Source: Bryobacteraceae bacterium
GTDB lineage: Bacteria; Acidobacteriota; Terriglobia; Bryobacterales; Bryobacteraceae
DNA: 58,736 nt
NCBI GenBank assembly: GCA_039934475.1
Contig: JBDTMC010000001.1
Span: forward strand, 1 to 58,736
Direction: 5' to 3'
In this document: positions 5,118 to 16,100 of the stretch, in pieces
Position numbering within the stretch: the first letter of the stretch is position 1
Layout of the letters: every line of letters begins with the position of its first letter
The notes under the pieces: model-generated
What the model was told of the DNA's origin: nothing
Database searches by the model: none
The model's input: only the letters and a program-made list of their open reading frames with translations
Made by a program: the position numbers and the translations under genes

Positions 5118-5972
5118 CTAATGCCCGATTTCTCTGCCAGGAGATTTTCGTGTCGCCCCGTGGGATCGCGGGGGCGCTGTCGCGCAAGACCAAACTGGGC
5201 CGACTGAGACAGATCGGATCCAGGCTCTAACACGCAGTTTGAAAGAGAGCAAAACGTGGCGCTGTAATTTGCAGGACTTTGCGCCGCGACTGTTCCAGCC
5301 AGTAGGGCAGGCGTCGGCGTCCGCGCGGTTGAAGTAGAGCGGGGGCGTAGCGGGCTTAGGCAGTTGAGTGGTTGGGGGGAATCGCTGCAGAAGTGGGAAC
5401 AGGGTCAACGGTTGCATGTGCACTCGAAGCACCGCAACGGTCTGGAGCAGACCTTGCCTGGCGAGCGTTTCCAGGTATTCTACCAATGTCTTGGGAGGGT
5501 TCTTAAGGCTCTCGCGATGATTCTGGGCCGCTTCCACAACAGCATGGGGCGCAAGGTGGAGGAGGTGAAGGACGAATTCGTCGGGATGTTGGGCTTTAAT
5601 GCCGAACGATCCAACGGTGTCAGCAGGAAAGTCTCGCAGGTTCATCGTTACGATGACGTCCGCACGACCCATAATGGCGGCAGCCACGACATGCCTGTCG
5701 TTGGGATCGGGAAGATGTAAACCGGGGATAAGATGCTGGTAGCCGGTGACAAGTGTATTGATGGCATGCGTGTCCATCAAGACCCGCGTACGTTCCAGTT
5801 TGTCGCGGGTGACGTCGGACCGGTGTTGTAGCAGACTGGAAATCCATTCTTCATGAACGTCCGCCGACCATTTCGCGCGAAAGAGCCCAGTGAGGGCTAG
5901 ATGCATCAGGAGGTTCCGAAGTTCCGCAGGATAGAGGACGTTGGCGTCATAGAAGGCGGTGAACCCAGCCAC
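5118..5972 (-). CDS. PIN-domain toxin (VapC-like); ORF extended about 97 codons into antisense repeat R2b
   Basis: GTG start at 5970-5972. The N-terminus FYDANVLYPAELRNLLMHLA...DPNDRHVVAAAIMGRADVIVTMNLRDF is typical of PIN proteins that pair with HTH antitoxins. Recognisable homology ends near aa 187 (about 5410). The rest reads through R2b and looks non-native. Confidence 0.7.
   Translation of the reverse strand: MAGFTAFYDANVLYPAELRNLLMHLALTGLFRAKWSADVHEEWISSLLQHRSDVTRDKLERTRVLMDTHAINTLVTGYQHLIPGLHLPDPNDRHVVAAAIMGRADVIVTMNLRDFPADTVGSFGIKAQHPDEFVLHLLHLAPHAVVEAAQNHRESLKNPPKTLVEYLETLARQGLLQTVAVLRVHMQPLTLFPLLQRFPPTTQLPKPATPPLYFNRADADACPTGWNSRGAKSCKLQRHVLLSFKLRVRAWIRSVSVGPVWSCATAPPRSHGATRKSPGREIGH
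5239..5410. repeat. direct repeat R2, copy b
   Basis: Second, more degraded copy of the esterase tail (..TGTAATTTGCAGGACTTTGCGCCGCGACTGTTCCAGCC..GGCAGGCGTCGGCGTCCGCGCGGTTGAAGTAGAGC..). Confidence 0.8.
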
Positions 5973-5976
5973 GGGT

Positions 5977-6427
5977 TCAAATTCCTAATTCCTGGTCGTA
6001 GGCTGCTAGTTCTGTGAGCGCCGCGCGGCGGGCCGCATCCGCACGGCGCTTGTAGGCAATCAATGCTTCCAATCGAACGCGCCGATGGGTACCGACCCGC
6101 CGGAATTCGATTTTGCCCCTCGTCGAGAAGTTGAATGAGAGAAGGCCGCGAGATATTCAGCATGTCGGCCGCTTCCTGCGTGGTGAGTTCCGCATGAACG
6201 GGGATAACGGTGACCGCATTCCCTCGCCCCATCTCTTCGAGAATGCGAATCAGCATTCGTACCGCAGAGGCGGGAATCTTTACGGTCCCCTTTGCCGGGT
6301 CGTCGAGGAGACGAAGCCGGAGCGGCTCTGCTGTCTGCAGGCGCGAGGTGAGAACCCTGCTCGAGTGTTTGGCAAGGGCCGCTTCGGCCTCAGACGGAAG
6401 CTTTGGTGTTGGTGTTCCCTGTGCCAT
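5977..6427 (-). pseudogene. helix-turn-helix (excisionase/MerR-like HTH) antitoxin, frameshifted
   Basis: ATG at 6427 preceded by AAGGAG. The HTH segment is [24 protein letters not shown]. After the C4 run at 6116-6119 the native continuation [45 protein letters not shown] lies in another frame. Its stop at 5977-5979 is 5 nt upstream of the toxin start. Confidence 0.7.
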
Positions 6428-6468
6428 GTTGCGCTCCTTTGTTCCAGCTAATTCAGATTAGCATATAC

Positions 6469-6502
6469 TCGAAGCAATCGAAGGCAGTCGAAGTATTCGA
6501 AA
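6469..6502 (-). promoter_or_regulatory. four phased TCGAA[G/A] direct repeats overlapping the putative antitoxin promoter
   Basis: TCGAAG at 6469, 6478 and 6488, and TCGAAA at 6497 (9-10 bp spacing). They sit immediately upstream, in the minus sense, of a TATATGCTAAT -10-like box and the AAGGAG-ATG of the antitoxin. Confidence 0.45.
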
Positions 6503-6710
6503 CTGACGCGGTCTTTGAGGCAGACGAAGGCGTCACGCTGATGCTTCTTTGACTCAAACATTCTTATCGGGTCGCTTGAGCCATTGCCGCCGCGAGACTC
6601 TACCGGCCGGCTCCGCTTGGCCGACGATGCGGGAATTAAGGGATAGAACGGCGTTTATGGGGAGTAATCCACAAACCTAACGACGAGCGGTAGAAGACGA
6701 ACGCCGGGAG

Positions 6711-7442
6711 TCAGGAAAACTGCTGCGCGAGCGCGTCGCAGAGTTGGACGAAAGAAAGCAAATCAATCTCCGCCATCCACCCGGTCTTCTGCTCGAAATC
6801 GTCGTAGCAGAAAATGCGCGGTTTAATGAAGTGCTGGTACGGATTGCCACTCTCGTTGCTGTCCAGTACGATGTTCTTCGCGTGCATAATCTTGTTGCAC
6901 GCTTCTCGCAGTGGTAGTGGTTGGAACGCCGTGTCACCAACCTGCTTGAAGAGGTTACCTACCGCGTCTTCGAGCCAGTCCCTCTGCGCTCGTTCGTTGT
7001 CGGCGTTTCCCGCGCCAATAAATCGCACCGCGACCGCCGTCTGGAGAAGGATGCGCATGATTTCGGAATCCTGGAACTCATCGCGCAGTCCCTGCCACGG
7101 GCAGAAATCCCCGCCGTCCGAAAGTTCCGCCAAATACTCACTCGTTTGGAAATAGCAGACCAGCCTATAAAGATCGAGCCGCAGCACCTGTCCGGGAAGA
7201 CTCAGGCCGATGTGGTTGATGCGAAGACCGAGATCGCGCTGGTATCCCTGCGCCTCTTCCGACGATAATGTTCCATCATCCAGCATGACGCCAACACTAT
7301 AGCAGGGTGCCTCGCGCGCGGGCTGCCAAACGTAGTCTGCCAGACGAGTACTAGGGATTCTTCCAGCACAAGGTTTAATCGGCCTCGGCATGATCCCGAT
7401 TGAATCGTTGACGGCATTGCGGAGCAGTTGCTTACTTCCCAA
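6711..7442 (-). CDS. hypothetical protein (243 aa), Cys-rich, no family recognised
   Basis: Clean ORF 106 bp downstream of, and co-oriented with, the TIGR02391-like gene. It contains LREACNKIMHA (6882-6908), an R-x7-H spacing that is only loosely HEPN-like. Alternative start at 7391. Confidence 0.6.
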   Translation of the reverse strand: MGSKQLLRNAVNDSIGIMPRPIKPCAGRIPSTRLADYVWQPAREAPCYSVGVMLDDGTLSSEEAQGYQRDLGLRINHIGLSLPGQVLRLDLYRLVCYFQTSEYLAELSDGGDFCPWQGLRDEFQDSEIMRILLQTAVAVRFIGAGNADNERAQRDWLEDAVGNLFKQVGDTAFQPLPLREACNKIMHAKNIVLDSNESGNPYQHFIKPRIFCYDDFEQKTGWMAEIDLLSFVQLCDALAQQFS

Positions 7443-7548
7443 ATAGCGCTGTTTAGGCGCTGACGTGCCGGAACAAGAACTGACACCATGCGCGCCAATC
7501 CGCGCTTTGTTGATGGCCTTAGGTCAGCCCATCAGTGATGTTTTGTCG

Positions 7549-8379
7549 TCATTCGCTCGCCGGCGCTTCCCAGTCATCGACAGGAGGGTGCGCCATCGTC
7601 ATCTCATGCATGATTCGGAATCGCTGCGCCTCGACAATTCGCAGGAGCGTGCTCGCGGAGACGATCACCTCGGCCGCTTCCTCAGCCGTACTGCCGACAT
7701 GACGGTGCCCTGTCGAGTTGCGAAACACGCCAATGGCACCCGCGAACAGATGCGCCATGGATTCCTGCTCCGCCACAGGCCGACGCGTCTCTGTGAGTGG
7801 TCCCGGCGAAATCGGTTGTCCCCTCTTATCGCCCGCAGGCCTGAAAGCGACTCGCATTAGATCAGGACCGTAGTACGGCTCATCCTGCAAGGAGCCCGCT
7901 TCACGAACGGCCATTTCCACCTGCCGGAAGGCTTCAAAGATCGCTGTGTCGTATTTGCCGCTCAGAAAGATCGGGTAAACCTCGTTCCCGATGAGCGGGT
8001 GAAGCTGATGCTTTGGCAACAGACTTCCCTTCCGGTAGGAGGCGTATTTATCTCGTGTCTTGATCGCCTTGCCGCGACGCGTGATGAAATAGAGCTGGGA
8101 GCTGTCAAGCTCCCGCGCCAGCAATCCGTCACTTTGCAGCCAACTCCACGCTTCCAACAGCGCTCTTTGAAGCTCCGTTTGATTGGCCCCGGGGTACGAC
8201 GGATTCTTCCAGAGCCAATTGAAAAACTCCGACTGGCTCACTCTCCCGTGTTGCGCGATCGCACTACTGCCAGCATCCGCCCAGGCGTTCAGATAGACAA
8301 GCAGCACGCCGGCTAGGTCCTCCACCGGAAGCGAAAAGAAATCGACGGTGTTTGGAATCAGCTGCGTGAGCGGGTACAT
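7549..8379 (-). CDS. TIGR02391 (hypoth_ymh)-family protein with HEPN-type RNxxxH motif
   Basis: The C-terminal half ...YDTAIFEAFRQVEMAVREAG...LMRVAF...GPL...ESMAHLFAGAIGVFRNSTGHR...EEAAEVIVSASTLLRIV matches my recollection of the TIGR02391 pattern. The R-N-S-T-G-H motif is at 7705-7722. Confidence 0.7.
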   Translation of the reverse strand: MYPLTQLIPNTVDFFSLPVEDLAGVLLVYLNAWADAGSSAIAQHGRVSQSEFFNWLWKNPSYPGANQTELQRALLEAWSWLQSDGLLARELDSSQLYFITRRGKAIKTRDKYASYRKGSLLPKHQLHPLIGNEVYPIFLSGKYDTAIFEAFRQVEMAVREAGSLQDEPYYGPDLMRVAFRPAGDKRGQPISPGPLTETRRPVAEQESMAHLFAGAIGVFRNSTGHRHVGSTAEEAAEVIVSASTLLRIVEAQRFRIMHEMTMAHPPVDDWEAPASE

Positions 8380-8545
8380 AGCTAATCATGCCGTTTTCGT
8401 CTATTCGGCGGCAAGTGATGCGATCTCAGTCGCCCTTTCAATACCCCGCCGTTGGTCGCTAGATCGAGGCGTCAGGATCAACGGCGCACTACTTTGCGGG
8501 TCGCGCCTTGATTGTTGATCATTCGAAAGTTGGGCGGATTAGTCC

Positions 8546-8590
8546 CCGCAAGTCGGAATGGGACAGTTCAACTTCCGGGTAGTGCGTCAC
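8546..8590 (+). repeat. R4 hairpin-type repeat, copy a
   Basis: CCGCAAGTCGGAATGGGACAGTTCAACTTCCGGGTAGTGCGTCAC matches 9822-9866 at 37/45 positions. Confidence 0.75.
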
Positions 8591-8781
8591 TCGCTCGGAG
8601 CGCGGGGAGCGGTTGCATTCCGGCCGAACTTGGGCCGCTCAGCCTGCGCGAAGTTGATCTTGGCGGTAAGCCCTGATTCGCCTGCGCGCTCAATCAGACT
8701 GAAAGGGGGGCGCGCTCGGCGGCGTGCGTGCGACGCTGTATGACAATGACGATTCCGTGATGCGGCTGCACCTGAACACCG

Positions 8782-9761
8782 ATGCCGGGGATTTGGGAAA
8801 CTGATCTTCAACCAGTTATGAATTCCCCGAAACAGGATGCCACGTCGGAACAAGGCGTCGCGTGGGTAAAACATGCCGTGTCGCGTCACACTGGCTGGAT
8901 TTTCCGTGAGCAGACTAACATGGACAAAGGCGTCGACGCCCAAGTGGAAGAAGTCGCAGACGGGCGAGCAACCGGTCGATTGATCGGGCTACAGATTAAG
9001 TCCGGCCAGTCCTGGTTCAAAGGCAAAACCAGAGGCGGCTATACCTATAACGGCGATGCCAAACACCTCACGTACTGGCACACAGCCTCCCGATTCTAAT
9101 CGTCCTCTACGATCCGATATCAACCCAAGCCTACTGGCAGTGGGTAGCGGAGCAGCATATCAAAATCAATCCCAAGGGTTGGGCCATCAGTGTGCCACCC
9201 ACGCAGATGATCAACGCGAGTACCGCAGCAGCATGGCATCAGATTTGCTTACCCGAGTCCGACAAGCGTTTCATTCGTCGCAAGAGCCACTTCGAAGAGA
9301 TCGCCAACGCATTCTCGCGCTACCCAGAACGCCGACAGACCCTGATCTATGAGGCACTCAGCCACAGTCGTCACAGCATTTACCTCTCGACACCCTACGT
9401 CAGTGCAGACATCATCGCCGTTCTCGATTACGTTGCCGTCAAAACCCCAGTTCGACTCGTGATTGGTGACATTCAACCCGAGGAGGTCTGGAAGCTTCTC
9501 CGCTCGCGAACAAGGCCGGGCTTCGAAGTCCGCGTCGCCCTGCACCTGCATTTAAAACTGTCCATTTTCGACAGCCTCTTTCTCATCAGCGGTTCCGGGA
9601 ATCTCACGGCTATGAGCCTAGAACGTCAGACGGAACAGTTTTCTACGCTCGTTGACGAAGACGAGACGCAACAGCACCTGGAACACTTCTTTGACGTTTG
9701 GAACGACAGCATCGACGTCAATAACCTTCCAGCGTCTACCGGTGCCCGTGCATCAGCCTAA
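8782..9761 (+). pseudogene. DUF4365 (PD-(D/E)xK-like) - phospholipase D-family nuclease fusion, one frameshift
   Basis: ORF 8782..9099 reads ...NMDKGVDAQVEEV..TGRLIGLQIKSG...HLTYW, which is DUF4365-like. The expected continuation PILIVLYDPISTQAYWQWV... is in the frame of ORF 9192..9761. The break is at the C3 run 9089-9091. The C-terminal domain carries the HxKxxxxD motif HLKLSIFD (9549-9572) followed by GSGNLT. Confidence 0.7.
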
Positions 9762-9821
9762 GGCTTGCATACCAAGAGCCTCCAGAGTTGTCGGCAGACA
9801 GGAAGTTGACCGGATCCGTAC

Positions 9822-9866
9822 CCGGAAGTCGGCATTGGACAGTTCAACTTCCGAGTGGCGCGTTAT
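9822..9866 (+). repeat. R4 hairpin-type repeat, copy b
   Basis: CCGGAAGTCGGCATTGGACAGTTCAACTTCCGAGTGGCGCGTTAT. It has an internal 7-bp stem CGGAAGT/ACTTCCG. A degenerate inverted GGAAGTTGAC lies at 9801-9810. Confidence 0.75.
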
Positions 9867-10176
9867 CCGGACGGGGCAGTCAGGTCCATCATCACAGATG
9901 CGGACTTCGGAGTGCCGAGTCGCGCTTCGCAGCTACTGGCTCGCGCGTGTTTCGTCAGCTTGATGGCGACCGGCCTAATTCATGGAGGGCGCCTCGAACA
10001 GGTGTAAGGCAGATGGAGATTGCGACATTGTGGTGGAGCACGGCCGACCGGCCGCGGACATGGGGCTTGAGTGTGTGCTCCCTGGGTTCCTGACTTGCAA
10101 GGAACCCCAGGCGGCTGTGCAACAAGCTTGCCTTTGCGACGGAGGATGCCGGAACGGCGATGCGACAAGTTCTTTC

Positions 10177-10213
10177 CCTGACAACTCGCATCATTTTGAC
10201 GCGAGTTGTCAGG
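10177..10213 (-). terminator. 13-bp perfect stem-loop 15 nt downstream of the LTD gene stop
   Basis: CCTGACAACTCGC (10177-10189), 11-nt loop, GCGAGTTGTCAGG (10201-10213). No U-tract follows on either strand, so terminator function is uncertain. Confidence 0.4.
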
Positions 10214-10227
10214 CGGGGGCTAGGCCA

Positions 10228-10719
10228 TCAGCGCAGGGTATAGGCGGCTTTCGTCGTGGGAACCAGCTTGCCGCCGCTGCGGACCAGCACTTCACCCTCC
10301 GGCGGATTGGGATCGTAGCTTGCGGAATCGAGTGTCGCCTGGGTGACGGGGTTGTAGAGAGCCGGCGTGTCGCCTTCCTTGTTGTTCCAGACGTAATCCT
10401 TGTCCGTGAACAAGTGAAAGTCCGCCCCCCGAAGGTCTTCATCCCGGATCACGCTTTCGGGACCGCTGCCCGAGTGAACACGCACCGTTTTCCCCGGTTG
10501 CAGGGTCCCCTTGAACGACATGACCTTGTCCCAGGTGGGCGCTTGCCCGTGGTGATACGCCCGGTGCCACAGCTCAAGCTGAGCGCAGTCAAACTGGGCT
10601 GTTCCGTCGTTTATAAAATCGACCCATTCTGCCGCCAGTTGGGAAGCAGGGGTTTGTCCGTAGCGATTCCGGTCTTTACCCGCCGGATTGGGCTTGATGC
10701 CAGTGATCTGTAAAGCCAT
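10228..10719 (-). CDS. lamin-tail-domain (LTD) protein, 163 aa, no signal peptide
   Basis: MALQITGIKPNPAGKD...EWVDFINDG...LELWH...LQPGKTVRVHSGSG...YVWNNKEGDTPALYNP fits the LTD pattern (I..NPxGxD...EwVel.N.g...L.gw.l...l.pG..v.v.sg.g...iwNn.gD...L). Confidence 0.65.
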   Translation of the reverse strand: MALQITGIKPNPAGKDRNRYGQTPASQLAAEWVDFINDGTAQFDCAQLELWHRAYHHGQAPTWDKVMSFKGTLQPGKTVRVHSGSGPESVIRDEDLRGADFHLFTDKDYVWNNKEGDTPALYNPVTQATLDSASYDPNPPEGEVLVRSGGKLVPTTKAAYTLR

Positions 10720-10927
10720 AATTGAAAGACATCCTTAAAGCAATGTGAGGGCGTTGCCGCCGTCAAAGGTTCTTCGGGAACCTTCACTCTCCTTACGAAT
10801 AAGGGCCGGCGGTTTTCCCCCTGAGCCCGGGAATTATTTTTCCGGGGGGAAGACCGGGCCTGCTGGTTCGTATAGTCAGTGAAGGGACGCGGCAGTGACA
10901 AAATAGGCTATTGGTAAAGTCCGGGGC

Positions 10928-11509
10928 ATGGTGAATCGCTTCCAGAACGTCGATTTTGTGAGGGCCTACAAGGTCCTGTCACTCAGGGCGATGGGGATCG
11001 TCCGTCATTACGGCGGCCCGGACACTTTTGATGGCGGTTTCGACTACGAAGACGTTCTCGGAGAGGTCTTCCACGAGTTTTTCAACTCCCCGGACGGTCT
11101 GGGCTGGAAAGAGAGCAAGGGCAGCATCGAGGCCTTTCTGGGCAAGATCCTACACAACAAGATCGTCGATCATTTGCGGCGACAGAAACACCTTGGCGGC
11201 CCTCTCGATGACGACAGCCGGACCGTCGCGCCCCCGGCTTCTAAGAACAGCCCTCAGGGCGTAGCCCCGGCACGCGCGAAGACCGATTTCACGGCCAAGC
11301 TCTATACGCTGGTGGGCGATGACAGCCCGCTGAAGGATTTAATCGTGGCAGCCGAAATGATATCCGGCAGCCATAACGTCAATCAGGAATTGGGAGAAAT
11401 CTTGGACAAAACGCCCCATCAGGTATCCAAGCTGAAGGATCGCCTGCTGAAGAAAGAAGGGGTACGGGAACTTTATGCCTCGCGACAAGCAGCCAGAACA
11501 AGAGCCTGA
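10928..11509 (+). CDS. divergent sigma-70 family (ECF-like) sigma factor
   Basis: Region-2-like segment DYEDVLGEVFHEFF...SIEAFLGKILHNKIVDHLRRQKH. Region-4-like HTH NQELGEILDKTPHQVSKLKDRLLKK. The start codon is uncertain. Confidence 0.6.
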   Translation: MVNRFQNVDFVRAYKVLSLRAMGIVRHYGGPDTFDGGFDYEDVLGEVFHEFFNSPDGLGWKESKGSIEAFLGKILHNKIVDHLRRQKHLGGPLDDDSRTVAPPASKNSPQGVAPARAKTDFTAKLYTLVGDDSPLKDLIVAAEMISGSHNVNQELGEILDKTPHQVSKLKDRLLKKEGVRELYASRQAARTRA

Positions 11510-11909
11510 CATCCTGGACAAGCTGTTCGGAGACGCGGCGGAGCTTGCCGACGACGAACTGGACATGCTCTTTGCCGCCCTTGCGCCCGGCGCTGATCCG
11601 GCGGCCGATATTCACGCCATCGCCGAAGCGGCGGCGGTGAAGTACCGTATTCAAAACAAGATGCCGCCGGATCACGTCCAGGCCGCGATTGATGCCACCC
11701 GCGAAATCAAGACTCTCGACAATGTCGCGCCGTCAAAGCTGCGCCAGATCGTGGACGCCATCAAGTCACCCTTTACAGGGGCCGTCTCCGATCCCGCTTA
11801 TGCCTATCGGAACCGCGACGGCGAGTTGGACAACGACGACCAGGCCATCGTGGATGACCTGACGGACGAACTTCAGAAGGATTGGGATGACGAGGAAAAG
11901 GAGCCATGA
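11475..11909 (+). CDS. highly acidic small protein (144 aa), unknown function
   Basis: ORF overlaps the sigma gene stop by 35 nt and the protease gene start by 4 nt (ATGA). It is Asp/Glu-rich throughout (..ELADDELDML.., ..DGELDNDDQAIVDDLTDELQKDWDDEEKEP). An alternative start at 11565 would remove the 5' overlap. Confidence 0.55.
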   Translation: MPRDKQPEQEPDILDKLFGDAAELADDELDMLFAALAPGADPAADIHAIAEAAAVKYRIQNKMPPDHVQAAIDATREIKTLDNVAPSKLRQIVDAIKSPFTGAVSDPAYAYRNRDGELDNDDQAIVDDLTDELQKDWDDEEKEP

Positions 11910-12763
11910 GCCCGGCCGCCCAGCTTGCCTGCCTCGTGACTCAGCGTTTCGTAAAAAGCTCGCCGCCCGATCTCGCGTCCCTCTGCAAAGAGCTTGGCTT
12001 GCGCATTCAGGAAGTTCCTGCCAAGGGGTTTGACGGCGCTCTGGTGCGCAGCAAATCCGGGCAAAAGGGCATCATTGCGGTCAAGGCGAGCGTCCGGGAG
12101 GCGTCGCGCAAGCGGTTCACCGTCGCGCATGAAATCGGGCATTTCGTCATTCCGCACCACCGCCTGCTGAAGAACGTCTGCGATGAGAAGACAATCGACA
12201 GTTTTGATTCGCGGCTGAACCGGCCCGAGATCGAGGCCAACGAGTTTGCCGCGGAGCTTTTGCTGCCAAGCGCCCTTCTTGCAAAGCGATTCAACCTGAA
12301 AGAACTCTCGATCCCAGAAATCTCCGCGGTCGCCACGGAATTCGAAACGAGCCTGACGGCGACGGTTCGCTCTTTCCTTCGGCTGACGGCCCTGCCGTGC
12401 GCTATGGTCTGGAGTTCGGATAATCAGGCGCGGTGGTGCGCCCGCAGCGATACGTTCCGCTTCTTCCTGCCGCTTGCCGAGTTGCCGGCGGAAGGTTCCT
12501 TTGCCACCGGACTTTTCAAGGGCCGGATGGTCCCTTCGGATTTCGCGGCGGTTCCCGCCGAGGCGTGGCTAGAGCGGCAAGCCGCCGAAAGCGTGGAGAC
12601 GTTGCTGGAGCATTCCATTTACCTGCCGAACTACAATTCCGTGCTTACACTGCTATGGCTTTCTGAATTGGACACAGAGAGCTTCTCTCGGGAAGAAGAC
12701 GGCCTCTTGAACGAGCTTGACTCCCGAGAGTTTACGCTAGCTCGTCGAAGATGGCCCGGCTGA
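11906..12763 (+). CDS. ImmA/IrrE-family (COG2856-like) zinc metallopeptidase with about 130-aa C-terminal extension
   Basis: HEIGH at 12128-12142 (FTVAHEIGHFVIPHH), followed by EANEFAAELLLP. This is the canonical ImmA/IrrE arrangement. The C-terminal half belongs to no family I recognise. Confidence 0.8.
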   Translation: MSPAAQLACLVTQRFVKSSPPDLASLCKELGLRIQEVPAKGFDGALVRSKSGQKGIIAVKASVREASRKRFTVAHEIGHFVIPHHRLLKNVCDEKTIDSFDSRLNRPEIEANEFAAELLLPSALLAKRFNLKELSIPEISAVATEFETSLTATVRSFLRLTALPCAMVWSSDNQARWCARSDTFRFFLPLAELPAEGSFATGLFKGRMVPSDFAAVPAEAWLERQAAESVETLLEHSIYLPNYNSVLTLLWLSELDTESFSREEDGLLNELDSREFTLARRRWPG

Positions 12764-12870
12764 TCTCGCGCTACTAGAGCCCGTAAGATCTGAATTAATT
12801 GTAGATATGGGCGACTCGGACCTCTATTCACACCTTGCCCAGAACCGGCGTTCTGGGAAGCGTCCGGTCA

Positions 12871-12906
12871 GCTGCGAGCGAATCGTCGGCAAACCGGAAG
12901 TTGAAC
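12871..12906 (-). repeat. R4-related sequence, inverted orientation (copy c, partial)
   Basis: The reverse complement contains the exact 13-mer GTTCAACTTCCGG shared with 8566-8578 and matches about 27/36 positions of the R4a right half. The hairpin arm is not conserved. Confidence 0.45.
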
Positions 12907-13110
12907 GAAGGCTGACCGAAGCAAGTGCGAAGTGCAAGTGCTCGAATCTGCCCGGCCAGGATCCGACGTTCTAACGCAAGGCCGGCTGAGGCGGCCGCGA
13001 TGACGGCTCCTCGCGTGACTAAGCAACCCGTAGGCGGCGCCGTTGGCATTGGCCCGGCGACAAGCCCCGATTGAGCAGCCTATCGCCGATGGTATCTGAG
13101 GGCTTGTCGC

Positions 13111-16100
13111 CTACTTCACTTTCACCGGGTACGGGGCGTGCTCCGGTAACTTCGGCGAAGACTCTTTCAGCTTCTTGAGTAACTCCGCGACGCCGCGTTC
13201 GAGTTGGGGGTCGTGGCCTTCCATTAGGGACTTGGCGTCGTTCTCTACTACGATGTCGGGATCTACGCCGTGGCCTTCCACGGTCCATTCTCCCTTCGCG
13301 GTCGCGTAGCCGAACTCGGGTACGCTGACTCCGCCGCCATCCATCAGAGGGCCGTGGCCGCTGATGCCCACTACCCCGCCCCAGGTGCGCTGGCCTACCA
13401 GCAGACCGAGGCCGGCGGTGCGGAACATCCAGGGGAAGATGTCTCCGTCAGAGGCGGAATTGCCGTCGATGAGCACCAGTTTCGGTCCAATGAAGACGCT
13501 CGAGGGATACGCATTGGCTGTCTCAGTCGTACGGGAGTAGCTGACCGAGAGGAGCGGCCGGATCAACCTCGCGATCACCATCCGTGAGATGTTGCCACCC
13601 CCATTCGCACGGTCGTCGATCAGAAAAGCGTCCTTCATGAGCTGGGGGTAATACCATTTGATGAACTCACGGATCCCGTTGGCGCCCATGTCCGGCAAGT
13701 GCATATAGGCGATGCGGCCACCGGAGAGTTCGTCCACACGGCGGCGGTTTCGCTCCACCCAATCGTGATAGATCAGGTCGGCCTCGCTGCCCAGCGGACG
13801 GTAAGAAACCTTTCGCGCTCCGGTGAGGCTCGCCGTGGTGTTCAGCGTCAGCTCCACCGGAGCATCGCCGGCATTACGAAGCCACTTGTAGATGTCTTCC
13901 TTGGTGGTAACGTCCTCACCGTTGATCGCCAGGACGTAGTCGCCCAGTCGGGCATCCACGCCGACTTCAGTAAGTGGTGCCCGGAACGTTGCCTCTTCGT
14001 TTTGACCGCTGAAGATCCGTTCGATGCGGTACCGTCCCGACGCTGGGTCAACGCTGAATCGCGCTCCTGGCAGTCCCGCATGGGGACGGGGCGGAATCTG
14101 GTAGTCGCCACCTTCGATATACGTGTGCTGGACGGTGAGTTCCGCAATCATCTCGCCCATCACATAGTTCAAATCGGAGCGGTGCGCGACATAGGGCAGC
14201 AGCGCTCTGTAACGCTTCCCGATGGCTTCCCAATCGTGCCCGTGCATGTTGGGGTCGTAGAAGAAGTCCCGGTAGCGGCGCCACACTTCGTCGAAAATCT
14301 GATTCCATTCCGCGGTGGGAACGCGCTCCAGCATGAGGTTGGCCGTGGAGACAGCCTTCTTGGATGACGCGCCGGATGCCGTGGCGTCGTATACGTTCCA
14401 TTGCGCACCCTGCCGCACCAGCACCTTGGAGCCATCGCGAGAGAGATCGAAGCCGCCGCCGATGTCGTCGGCGAGAGTGGTTTCCTTGCGGTCCTTGAAG
14501 GTGTAGATGCGGAGCGACGCTTTGGTATCAGACGGCCGCCCGTAGTAACCGGCGGGCCCGATGGAATAGACAAGCGCACCGGTTTTCGCATCCAGCCCGT
14601 TGTAGTTGTTGGCCTCTACAGGGACTGGGGTGACTCGCTGGGCCAGGCCATCGAAGTCTATGTCCTTGTCCTTCTTTGCGGCTTCGTCCTCTTTGTCCTT
14701 CTCTTTGTCCTTCTCTTTGTCCTTGTCCTTGTCTTTGTCCTTTGGCTTGGCGACAGTAACCTCGTCGCTCTCAGGAGGGAACGGGTTCTTCACGTCCTTA
14801 CGCAGTGCCAGCGCGTAGATTCCCCCAGAGCGGTTGCCTGCGAAATCGAATTCGACGTTGGAGATCTGCGGATGGAATTCATGGTTCGCGAGGTAGTACA
14901 AATAGTCGCCGGCGGGGTCCCAGACAGCACTGTTTTCGTTAGTCAAACCCGAGGTGATTTTGCGAAGCTGGCCGTCCTTGATGCTCCAGATGTAAATGGC
15001 CGAGAACCCGGCGGCGTCGTTGATGCTGAACGAAAGGTAACTGCCGCCCGGAGACCAGGAGTAGTCGCGAATTTCGCCCTCCTTGCAATGAGCCACCTCG
15101 CGCGGCGTCTTGTCGGCGAGGGAAACCACCCACAGGCGGCCATCCTTGTCGGAATAGGCGAGGTGTTGATTGTCAGACGCCCACTTCGGATCGTAGCGGA
15201 ACGCTTTGCCGCCGCTGGTGATCTTTTCGGCTGGCGCGGAGCCATCCTGCGGCGCCACATACAATTCCTCCTCGCCGCTGGCATCGGAAAAGAACGCGAC
15301 TTTCGCGCCATCGGGAGACCAGGCCGGCCACTTGTCGTGGGCACCGGGGGAACGGGTAAGGTTGCGCGGAGTCCCCTTCTCCACCGGCGCGGAGAAGATC
15401 TCGCCGCGGGCGGCGAAGAGGACCCGCTCGCCTTTCGGGCTGAGGCCCGCCTGCTCCACGTGTGCGGAGGCGGAGATCCAACTGGGGCGGCGATTGACGC
15501 CGTCGTCGGGCACGGTGACTGAAATTGGCTTCGTCTTGCCGGTTTTCACGGCCAGAATCTGGAGCTCTCCATCGAGTTCAAAAACGATGCGGTCCTGGCG
15601 ATCGGAACTCGGCCAGCGCACATCCCACGTATCGTATTTCGTCACCTGCGTGGTCTTGCCGGTGCCGGTGTCGTACGAATAGAGGTTGAAGTGGCCATCG
15701 CGGTCGGAGTTGTAGTAAATGGTCTTGCCGATCCACATGGGATCGCGGCTGGAACGGGGACCTTCGGTGATGCGCTTGGCAGCGTGGGTTTCGGTGTCGA
15801 AGATGTAGAGGACGTTGGCGGTACCGCCGCTATAGCGTTTTTCGGGCCGGAAGTCGCGAGCCTGCGGGGAATAGACAACTTGATTGCCGCCCGGCGAGAA
15901 GGAACCCGCGCCGGAGACGGGCATGGGCAGGGCCTCCGCGGGACCACCAGCGACGGGGACACGGTAGAGGCGGCTGATTCCGACATTCCAGCTATCGCGC
16001 AGCGAACGGAAGATGACGTAGTGGCCATCATTGGACCAGCCATAGACCTGATTGTCGTAACCCCAGCGGGGGGCCAGTGGTCCGCGGGCGGGATAGTAGG

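Follow-up and report, generated by a model that had tools for sequence, protein, structure and literature searches.

Which protein does an ImmA/IrrE-type metalloprotease cleave when there is no XRE-type repressor gene beside it? This question is raised by a locus in a 58,736-nucleotide (nt) stretch of DNA from a Bryobacteraceae bacterium (contig JBDTMC010000001.1, positions 1 to 58,736), and the whole stretch is referred to here as the window. An initial annotation of the window had described an operon for a sigma factor, a strongly acidic protein and the protease, and had proposed that the sigma factor is released when the protease cleaves the acidic protein. We found a self-contained cassette of about 3 kb and four genes, with a lamin-tail-domain (LTD) gene on one strand and the genes for an extracytoplasmic function (ECF)-like sigma factor, the acidic protein (protein X) and a CapP protease on the other. 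The locus is an intact member of a widespread CapH/CapP variant that has been noticed but is uncharacterized. The reading that we prefer, with a probability of about 0.6, is that single-stranded DNA (ssDNA) triggers CapP to cut X, which would be an anti-sigma factor, and that the freed ECF-like sigma factor then transcribes the LTD gene and its own operon. The four genes, with protein lengths in amino acids (aa), are as follows.

10928-11509, + strand: open reading frame (ORF) 1, a divergent ECF-like (sigma2 + sigma4) sigma factor of 193 aa
11475-11909, + strand: ORF2, protein X of 144 aa, acidic and predicted to be all-helical; candidate anti-sigma factor and CapP substrate, occupying the position of the capH gene
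11906-12763, + strand: ORF3, CapP, a zinc metallopeptidase of 285 aa with an M78 domain, a linker and a GAF-like region
10228-10719, - strand: the cargo gene, for a stand-alone lamin-tail-domain protein of 163 aa

The three ORFs of the + strand are real and not chance ORFs, since each has many homologs of constant length (67 for ORF1, 94 close ones for ORF2, and 546 for ORF3) and the gene order sigma-X-CapP was found again on independent contigs; the contigs with X homologs all have the three genes overlapping as they do here. The start of ORF2 (MPRDKQP...) is kept in its homologs, which are 142-149 aa long. The stop of ORF2 and the start of ORF3 overlap as ATGA, which can be seen directly in GGAGCCATGAGCC, a ribosome-binding site (AAGGAG) lies just 5' of the ORF3 start, and the stop of ORF1 falls 35 nt after the start of ORF2. 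The LTD gene was assigned by its match to the Pfam LTD model (1.6e-08, 35.4 bits, cut-off 34.3), and a signal peptide was not obvious by eye in its product. The layout described by the initial annotation (the three ORFs and their coordinates, the ATGA coupling, the overlap with the sigma stop, and the divergent LTD gene) was thus recovered. The absence of an XRE gene, which it had also stated, agreed with the ORF list and the family scan at the locus, where no XRE or helix-turn-helix (HTH) gene adjoins the triad.

By sequence comparison, ORF3 is a full-length CapP and not a generic ImmA/IrrE protease. The PADLOC capP model matched it at 7.2e-57 (residues 7-252 against model positions 8-241 of 242), and Thauera CapP (PDB 7T5T) matched residues 33-253 at 1.6e-16 with the switch cysteine aligned, while IrrE (PDB 3DTE) matched only weakly (0.0056). 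The M78 zinc peptidase domain (Pfam Peptidase_M78, 9.6e-16) contains HEIGH at residues 75-79 (H75-E76-x-x-H79), together with E108/E110. C92 (codon 12179-12181) is 13 residues past H79 and is followed by D-E. The spacing is the same in Thauera CapP, where C113 is 13 residues past H100, and C92 is invariant across 32 relatives. ORF3 therefore has the internal cysteine-switch loop, a feature of roughly one CapP in three. The alignments to the PADLOC model and to 7T5T also contain the full CapP architecture of peptidase, HTH-like linker and GAF, and the gene is upstream of and divergent from a variable defense/stress operon (LTD here; CBASS, Bub, DUF2188 and DUF3892 in relatives), as CapP genes are. 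Because ORF3 matches capP end to end, the 130-aa C-terminal extension that had been read as possibly sensory is the CapP linker and GAF region. The region is real, and the ImmA/IrrE assignment holds for HEIGH and M78, but the protein belongs to the characterized CapP family. The linker and GAF region binds ssDNA and activates the enzyme in published CapP and IrrE work, and family membership suggests that the peptidase of ORF3 would also be stimulated by ssDNA.

The CapPs of Acidobacteriota are extended at the C-terminus by a tail of about 33 aa (residues 253-285, window 12665-12763), which is outside the PADLOC capP model and the 7T5T alignment and is absent from the shorter CapPs of other phyla. 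F276, T277, L278, R280, W283, and P284 are near-invariant in this tail.

ORF1 is a divergent ECF-like sigma factor. Pfam Sigma70_r2 reached 24.6 bits against a cut-off of 24, and TIGR02937 aligned to residues 25-176 with 26.1 bits, under its cut-off of 42.9. A profile of 37 ORF1 homologs retrieved M. tuberculosis SigL from the PDB at 0.0024, and a pan-phylum profile of all 59 upstream proteins retrieved, over the full length, SigH (2e-8), SigL (1e-5), SigE (2e-4), and SigW (1e-3). In the AlphaFold2 (AF2) model there are two helical domains with a disordered linker between them (predicted local distance difference test, pLDDT, 76), and the top nine Foldseek matches of this model were all ECF sigma factors (probability 0.77-0.99, 173-207 columns). 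By profile and fold, ORF1 contains sigma2 and sigma4 only, as in ECF (group 4) sigma factors, with the weak match of a divergent member, and the earlier sigma-70/ECF-like assignment passed both kinds of test, though weakly. The upstream proteins of Bacteroidota matched the acidobacterial ones in hhalign with 97.7% probability (E=1.7e-12). The Bacteroidota sigma-like profile by itself barely matches PDB sigma factors, and the link is made via hhalign to A2. Two apparent sigma-X fusions (P0272 and P0275) were rejected, as their long forms are upstream-start artifacts. Another sequence (P0276, from NCBI, on a 72-kb contig) has a partial sigma factor, X and CapP in a single frame and is probably the product of a deletion or an assembly error.

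Protein X contains 35 D/E and 15 K/R residues, with a net charge of -20 and an isoelectric point of 4.2, in agreement with the strong acidity noticed at the outset. Sequence searches of Pfam, NCBIfam, PADLOC, PHROGs, and the PDB found no family match for X. The XRE-type HTH domain that defines CapH is missing, since Pfam and NCBIfam gave no HTH family on ORF2, and of 59 middle proteins only one has an HTH, this one being a canonical CapH at a sigma-less locus. With no HTH and strong acidity, X cannot be a DNA-binding repressor. No known anti-sigma domain was found in ORF2 or its 58 relatives in Pfam and NCBIfam, nor for ORF2 in the PDB or with Foldseek, for which the AF2 model (all-helical, pLDDT 66) was of low confidence and gave no meaningful structural match. 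X may work like an anti-sigma factor yet belongs to no described anti-sigma family. Its homologs form 79 representative clusters. In hhalign, X of Bacteroidota matched X of Desulfobacterota, Verrucomicrobiota and Chloroflexota with 96.6% probability (A11 against A12, E=6.6e-10), and the latter group matched acidobacterial X collinearly (A12 against A3, E=2.4e-4). Bacteroidota X and acidobacterial X gave no match to each other by hhalign, and their homology is only transitive, via the Desulfobacterota/Verrucomicrobiota group. By these profile comparisons, X is one fast-evolving family. One weak match (P0356) resembles classical membrane anti-sigma factors in its layout, with an X-like N-domain joined to a region that, by eye, seems to pass the membrane several times.

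A scan with a CapP profile, with one genome per species, gave 80 loci. A sigma-like gene is present about 1 kb upstream of capP in 61 of the 80, which is not an unbiased frequency because the scan was seeded from this clade. Sixty of these 61 loci have a non-HTH middle gene of about 120-190 aa, and in the other (L014) X and CapP are fused. The sigma gene is missing from every one of the 12 loci whose partner is of HTH type (8 XRE-type and 4 MqsA/HTH_17-type), and X was always accompanied by sigma and CapP in the scanned loci. The sigma-linked loci come from about nine phyla, including Acidobacteriota, Desulfobacterota, Verrucomicrobiota (with Kiritimatiellae), Chloroflexota, Bacteroidota, Pseudomonadota, Lentisphaerota, and Bacillota. 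Co-occurrence of the three genes had been proposed as a check of the initial annotation, and the triad is indeed co-conserved across these phyla and strictly exclusive with HTH partners. In a search of 2.9 million viral contigs, the single X match was a partial one (L092 2289-2492, a 5.2-kb IMG/VR contig; residues 10-77, 81% identity), and the scanned viral contigs are virtually free of the X family. An X-like gene and a CapP gene that are very similar to the Bacteroidota type (MFRNLDTLSDKDKKS) were also seen on a 5.3-kb contig of a Promethearchaeota metagenome-assembled genome (L063 442-1652). Their presence on this Asgard-binned contig is due either to bin contamination or to horizontal transfer.

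A conserved motif near the C-terminus of X points to a candidate cleavage site.

11805-11810, + strand: codons of Tyr111-Arg112, the predicted CapP scissile bond, from the conserved motif and its likeness to the CapH site between F82 and R83

E. coli CapH is cut by CapP between F82 and R83, the R83A mutation blocks the cut, and the C-terminal helix of CapH docks on CapP (Lau et al. 2022, bioRxiv 10.1101/2022.04.27.489752). Of the 59 middle proteins, 55 have Arg at one nearly invariant position (R112 here) and 46 have F or Y just before it. The Arg is followed by N, then L-[ST]-x-x-D, and then an amphipathic acidic helix. Tails of canonical CapH proteins from the same scan are alike (...FFRGYKDLDDASKEM, ...FFRKYKTMPEPTKKQ, ...MFRGIMEFPEKDKET, and ...AFRDFKGLSNKDREI; FFR/MFR/AFR...L..D), and one XRE-type partner, a bona fide CapH of the scan, matches the solved CapH domains PDB 7T5U and 7T5W. 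The link to CapH is based on motif inspection and on a ranking test within the loci. In this test, a profile of 38 positions made from X C-termini only was compared with the 6,812 ORFs of the fetched loci, and after X itself three canonical CapH proteins (2.4e-4, 0.13 and 0.28, one of them below 1e-3) outranked all unrelated ORFs. Against the PDB, the same profile retrieved low-complexity helical repeats only and not CapH 7T5W. A PDB search with the CapH tail as query was discarded, being swamped by designed armadillo repeats. Furthermore, an X-like N-terminal half is naturally fused to CapP in four representative clusters (P0323, P0327, P0329, and P0354) and in L014, for which the 15 CapH-CapP fusions of Lau et al. 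(2022) are a parallel, and the fusion P0323 retains an S-F-R motif. The motif and its likeness to CapH suggest that X is a CapP substrate, probably cut between Tyr111 and Arg112.

In the 208-bp intergenic region between the LTD and sigma genes, one bipartite word occurs twice, in inverted orientation and with the same geometry.

10794-10818, - strand: predicted promoter toward LTD, GGAAAAC-N12-TTCGTA, spacer CGCCGGCCCTTA
10848-10872, + strand: predicted autoregulatory promoter toward sigma-X-CapP, GGAAGAC-N12-TTCGTA, spacer CGGGCCTGCTGG

The + strand copy, which relatives conserve, lies 56 nt 5' of the sigma ATG. Conservation extends to the outer and inner words but not to the 12-nt spacers. 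These words resemble the -35 (GGAAC-like) and -10 (CGT-like) elements of ECF promoters, with 14 nt from AAC to CGT. The twin motif is also present in L001 with Bub cargo, in L007 and L008 with LTD, and in L026, and variants of it are in L003, L010, L012, and L013. The strict pattern had 12 matches in 182 kb of 12 loci. Eight of these are in the regions of about 260 nt upstream of sigma (about 1.7% of the sequence), and the mean after base-composition shuffling was 1.56 matches. The same back-to-back architecture with other words was found in Flavobacterium, Desulfobacterota, other Bacteroidota, Verrucomicrobiota, and C. sphaeroides, as one would expect if every sigma factor co-evolved with the promoters that it serves. 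A consensus scan of the intergenic region revealed no convincing housekeeping sigma-70 promoter. The initial annotation had named the divergent LTD gene as an example of an effector that the sigma factor would drive, and the LTD gene and the sigma operon are indeed each behind a copy of the same ECF-like motif. All parts of that hypothesis that were open to computational testing passed. In L013, a second motif copy (GTAAACCGGGGGCCGGCTGTTCGTA) and a sigma gene start are at 10475-10577 (- strand), inverted and 5.5 kb downstream of the first triad; they may belong to a second module or mark a member of the regulon. One strict-pattern match in the window, at 13875-13900 (- strand), is inside a tricorn-protease ORF and is most likely due to chance.

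The genes divergent from the triad vary among the loci. Among 114 divergent neighbor genes there were cyclases of anti-phage signaling systems based on cyclic oligonucleotides (CBASS; about 10 loci), ThiF/E1 (11), Multi_ubiq (5), and DUF6791 (4). Other recurrent neighbors were DUF2188 (6), DUF3892 (5), LTD (5), patatin, SAVED, HORMA, and DUF1508. The cargo is a Bub ubiquitin-like operon in L001, LTD with a 204-aa protein in L003 and L004, and LTD alone in L087 and L088. LTD cargo adjoins the triad also in L007, L008, and L010. CBASS, DUF2188, DUF3892, and Bub operons are reported to adjoin CapH/CapP (Lau et al. 2022 and the Bub paper). We found no function for stand-alone bacterial LTD proteins in the literature. 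In the PDB, the LTD protein matched only glutathione S-transferases, which were judged spurious.

Taken together, these results are consistent with the following circuit. At rest, the acidic X would keep the ECF-like sigma factor inactive in the manner of an anti-sigma factor. Phage infection or DNA damage would yield ssDNA and activate CapP, and activated CapP would cleave X between Tyr111 and Arg112, just ahead of its C-terminal helix. The released sigma factor would then guide RNA polymerase to both back-to-back promoters (GGAAAAC/GGAAGAC-N12-TTCGTA). One promoter would express the LTD cargo, and the other would express sigma-X-CapP, giving positive feedback and then a reset. A broader form of this reading, for which we consider the odds slightly better than even, is that in about nine phyla a cytoplasmic, ssDNA-sensing CapP cleaves a soluble anti-sigma factor of an unrecognized family, made of a CapH-like cleavage module and a new sigma-binding domain, and so releases a dedicated ECF-like sigma factor that turns on CBASS, Bub, LTD, and other defense or stress cargo at twin divergent promoters.

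Several observations weigh against this circuit. ORF1 is only marginally above the threshold of Pfam and falls short of the ECF cut-off of NCBIfam (26 vs 42.9 bits). X matches no known anti-sigma domain, its binding to sigma is a step that we infer, and its AF2 model is of low confidence with no structural neighbor. The homology of its cleavage module to CapH is suggestive but not proven, because the C-terminal profile missed 7T5W, and the F-R motif is absent in some X-CapP fusions. Classical ECF promoters have a spacing of 16-17 nt, and the motif here is about 2 nt shorter. The palindromes at the center of the intergenic regions could also serve an unseen repressor as operators. The interaction of X with sigma and the role of the LTD protein are the weakest links.

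On this account other explanations were weighed. X might be a substrate or partner of CapP and not an anti-sigma factor, acting as an inhibitor or chaperone of CapP or as an antitoxin-like neutralizer of the cargo, while the sigma factor supplies promoter specificity and is controlled otherwise. That X resembles no known anti-sigma domain would fit this explanation, as would the fusions, which join X to the protease and not to sigma, and the entry PDB 7T5T, which names its molecule 'CapP toxin'. However, X is found only where sigma is (61 of 61 loci, compared with 0 of the 12 HTH-type loci), and its acidity would suit the basic DNA-binding surfaces of a sigma factor. Moreover, X is constant while the cargo varies completely, so X cannot be cargo-specific. 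We therefore regard this explanation as unlikely. The sigma factor itself might instead be the target of the protease, either as a pro-sigma or for inactivation, with X as an adaptor, or the palindromes might be operators of a dimeric repressor encoded elsewhere. The intergenic centers are near-perfect palindromes in several phyla (for example TTTGCCA-N5-TGGCAAA), and the tie between motif and sigma is a prediction from sequence. Against this, the motif is bipartite with a non-conserved 12-nt spacer and occurs once per transcription direction, as expected of -35/-10 elements, and its words differ between the phyla examined, as if they track the sigma factor of each lineage. In addition, it is X and not sigma that has the conserved [FY]-R cleavage-like motif, and no repressor gene is conserved in the cassette, which makes these possibilities quite improbable.

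The locus might also be a switch of the ImmR/ImmA or toxin-antitoxin type that governs the mobility or maintenance of a mobile element and not a defense or stress effector. Terminal inverted repeats and the occurrence of the cassette in different genomic contexts at 94% identity (described below) would agree with this, and ImmA-like proteases control the induction of integrative and conjugative elements (ICEs) and prophages (Lau et al. 2022, discussion). But genes for an integrase, a transposase or replication are absent from the cassette, the viral contigs gave just one partial X match, and homologous triads adjoin CBASS and Bub operons. An adjacent XRE partner and a prophage or ICE site, which mark the ImmA/HTH-Xre toxin-antitoxin and ImmR/ImmA systems, are also missing here. 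A switch of this kind thus seems very doubtful, and release of the sigma factor by cleavage of X is the reading that we keep.

The initial annotation presented the system as undescribed, which is not wholly so. Lau et al. (2022) had recorded, but not analyzed, 24 CBASS loci in which capH and capP occur 'alongside a sigma70-family sigma factor', and in their Table S1 Rhodobacter sphaeroides 2.4.1 is listed as 'Sigma-70 present' with the middle gene given as capH. This locus is L090, on plasmid pDE of Cereibacter sphaeroides 2.4.1 (NZ_CP030276.1 59899-61684; proteins WP_227590689.1, WP_017208431.1 and WP_011331492.1). It was found by tblastn of plasmids with a CapP query, and an alphaproteobacterial X query gave none. 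The sigma profile recognized a 191-aa 'hypothetical protein' of pDE at 2.6e-14. No HTH is present in the 119-aa 'capH', which contains MAARNESELSDAD and was matched by the X profile at 1.5e-6, so the gene published as 'capH' in sigma-linked systems is X. The pDE CapP has the cysteine switch, the divergent genes encode a CD-NTase and a SAVED effector, and the intergenic region contains the inverted pair CATCTCCATATGCGG and CCGCATAGATGAG. RefSeq annotates both the sigma-like and the X gene of pDE as 'hypothetical protein'. Full-text searches of the literature found no description of a sigma/anti-sigma/CapP (or ImmA) circuit.

The window system is similar to CapH/CapP (Lau et al. 2022; 2026 preprint 10.64898/2026.05.16.725639) in the M78 domain, linker, GAF and cysteine switch of the protease, in the partner gene directly upstream with a stop/start overlap, in the position of the regulator divergent from variable cargo, and in the aromatic-Arg motif before the predicted C-terminal helix of the partner (F82-R83 in CapH). 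It is different in that X is acidic and has no HTH, an ECF-like sigma gene is always added, and the predicted logic is release of sigma at twin promoters and not de-repression. DdrO/IrrE of Deinococcus and ImmR/ImmA of ICEBs1 and phage phi105 also use a DNA-damage-activated M78 protease to cleave a regulator encoded next to it, and IrrE shares the GAF domain and ssDNA binding; their substrates, however, are XRE-type HTH repressors and no sigma factor is involved. RseA-sigmaE and RsiW-sigmaW are pairs of anti-sigma and ECF sigma factors that are released by regulated proteolysis. In Myxococcus, DdvS/DdvA controls a CBASS-CRISPR island, and these proteins are membrane-bound (PMC11506125). DdvS is thus a precedent for control of defense islands by an ECF sigma factor, and DdvA/DdvS is the nearest functional analog. 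Like these three pairs, the locus has a sigma2-sigma4 factor co-transcribed with a presumed inhibitor, a predicted autoregulatory promoter and predicted proteolysis of the inhibitor. The anti-sigma factors of known systems span the membrane, have recognizable anti-sigma domains and are cut by membrane or periplasmic proteases, whereas X is a soluble protein of a new family and CapP is a cytoplasmic protease of the same operon that would sense ssDNA. CapK/CapS and CapW/BrxR (PMC13373217) are ssDNA-responsive modules upstream of the same kinds of defense cargo, and CapK/CapS has parts borrowed from the anti-sigma/anti-anti-sigma world. In these systems CapS is a DNA-binding repressor, there is no sigma factor, and phosphorylation or direct binding is used instead of proteolysis.

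The known routes by which bacteria couple DNA damage to the expression of abortive infection are CapH/CapP, CapW, and CapK/CapS, and all of them work by de-repression, as does every Cap regulator described to date. If the proposed circuit is correct, a version built on sigma and anti-sigma would bring in a positive logic that amplifies itself and has its own promoter specificity, X would be a new family of soluble anti-sigma factors, and the cytoplasmic, ssDNA-activated CapP would be a new class of protease for anti-sigma factors. Since 61 of the 80 CapP loci most similar to the window are of the sigma type, many 'CapH/CapP' annotations may hide a different mechanism. The module is on a plasmid of the tractable R. 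sphaeroides, beside a CBASS operon, and thus the idea is directly testable. A stand-alone LTD protein under a defense-type regulator is also a lead to the function of LTD. In the window, circuit and cargo would be packed into a 3-kb cassette that is bounded by inverted repeats and apparently moves between genomic sites.

The ends of the cassette are marked by the following repeats, and a hairpin follows the LTD gene.

9842-9853, no strand: left inverted repeat GTTCAACTTCCG; an imperfect match to the right end runs about 40 nt inward; within a REPIN-like doublet at 9785-9853
12895-12906, no strand: right inverted repeat CGGAAGTTGAAC, 12 nt, 100% complementary to 9842-9853
10177-10213, - strand: hairpin 15 nt 3' of the LTD stop, with 17-nt arms (94% complementary) and a 3-nt loop; possibly the terminator of the LTD cargo transcript

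L087, L088, and L089 share 89-94% identity with window 9850-12898, and the flanking genes are wholly different. The homology starts at 9850 (L087 and L088) and ends at 12898 (L087 and L089), that is, at the inverted 12-mers. The bounding inverted repeats of the initial annotation therefore correspond to a perfect 12-nt inverted pair at the homology ends. In L087, where the copy is 94% identical, the ends (about 7140-7160 and 10415-10432) have a different pair, again mutually inverted (CCCAATCTCCGAGTGGC and GCCACTCGGAGATTGGG). These comparisons suggest that the four genes behave as a movable cassette. No integrase, transposase, replication or phage genes were found in it. The end repeats are either true terminal repeats or paired elements like repetitive extragenic palindromes (REPs).

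An element of about 100 nt, which contains a hairpin and has the core CGGAAGTTGAAC, is repeated at 8480-8640 and 9760-9920, and in partial, inverted form at 12860-12910. It looks REPIN-like and is probably the 'R4-type' repeat of the initial annotation. The block had also been placed in a defense-type island, and this is true of one side only. The left flank (5118-9761) contains defense and toxin-antitoxin-like genes: PIN_3 (5118-5972) beside an HTH_17 protein (5906-6427), Hypoth_Ymh (7549-8379), a PLD-like nuclease (9192-9761), and a truncated DUF4365 ORF (8782-9099) that covers only model positions 2-82 of 139. The right flank contains housekeeping genes, namely tricorn protease, Fic, aldolase, and HtrA.

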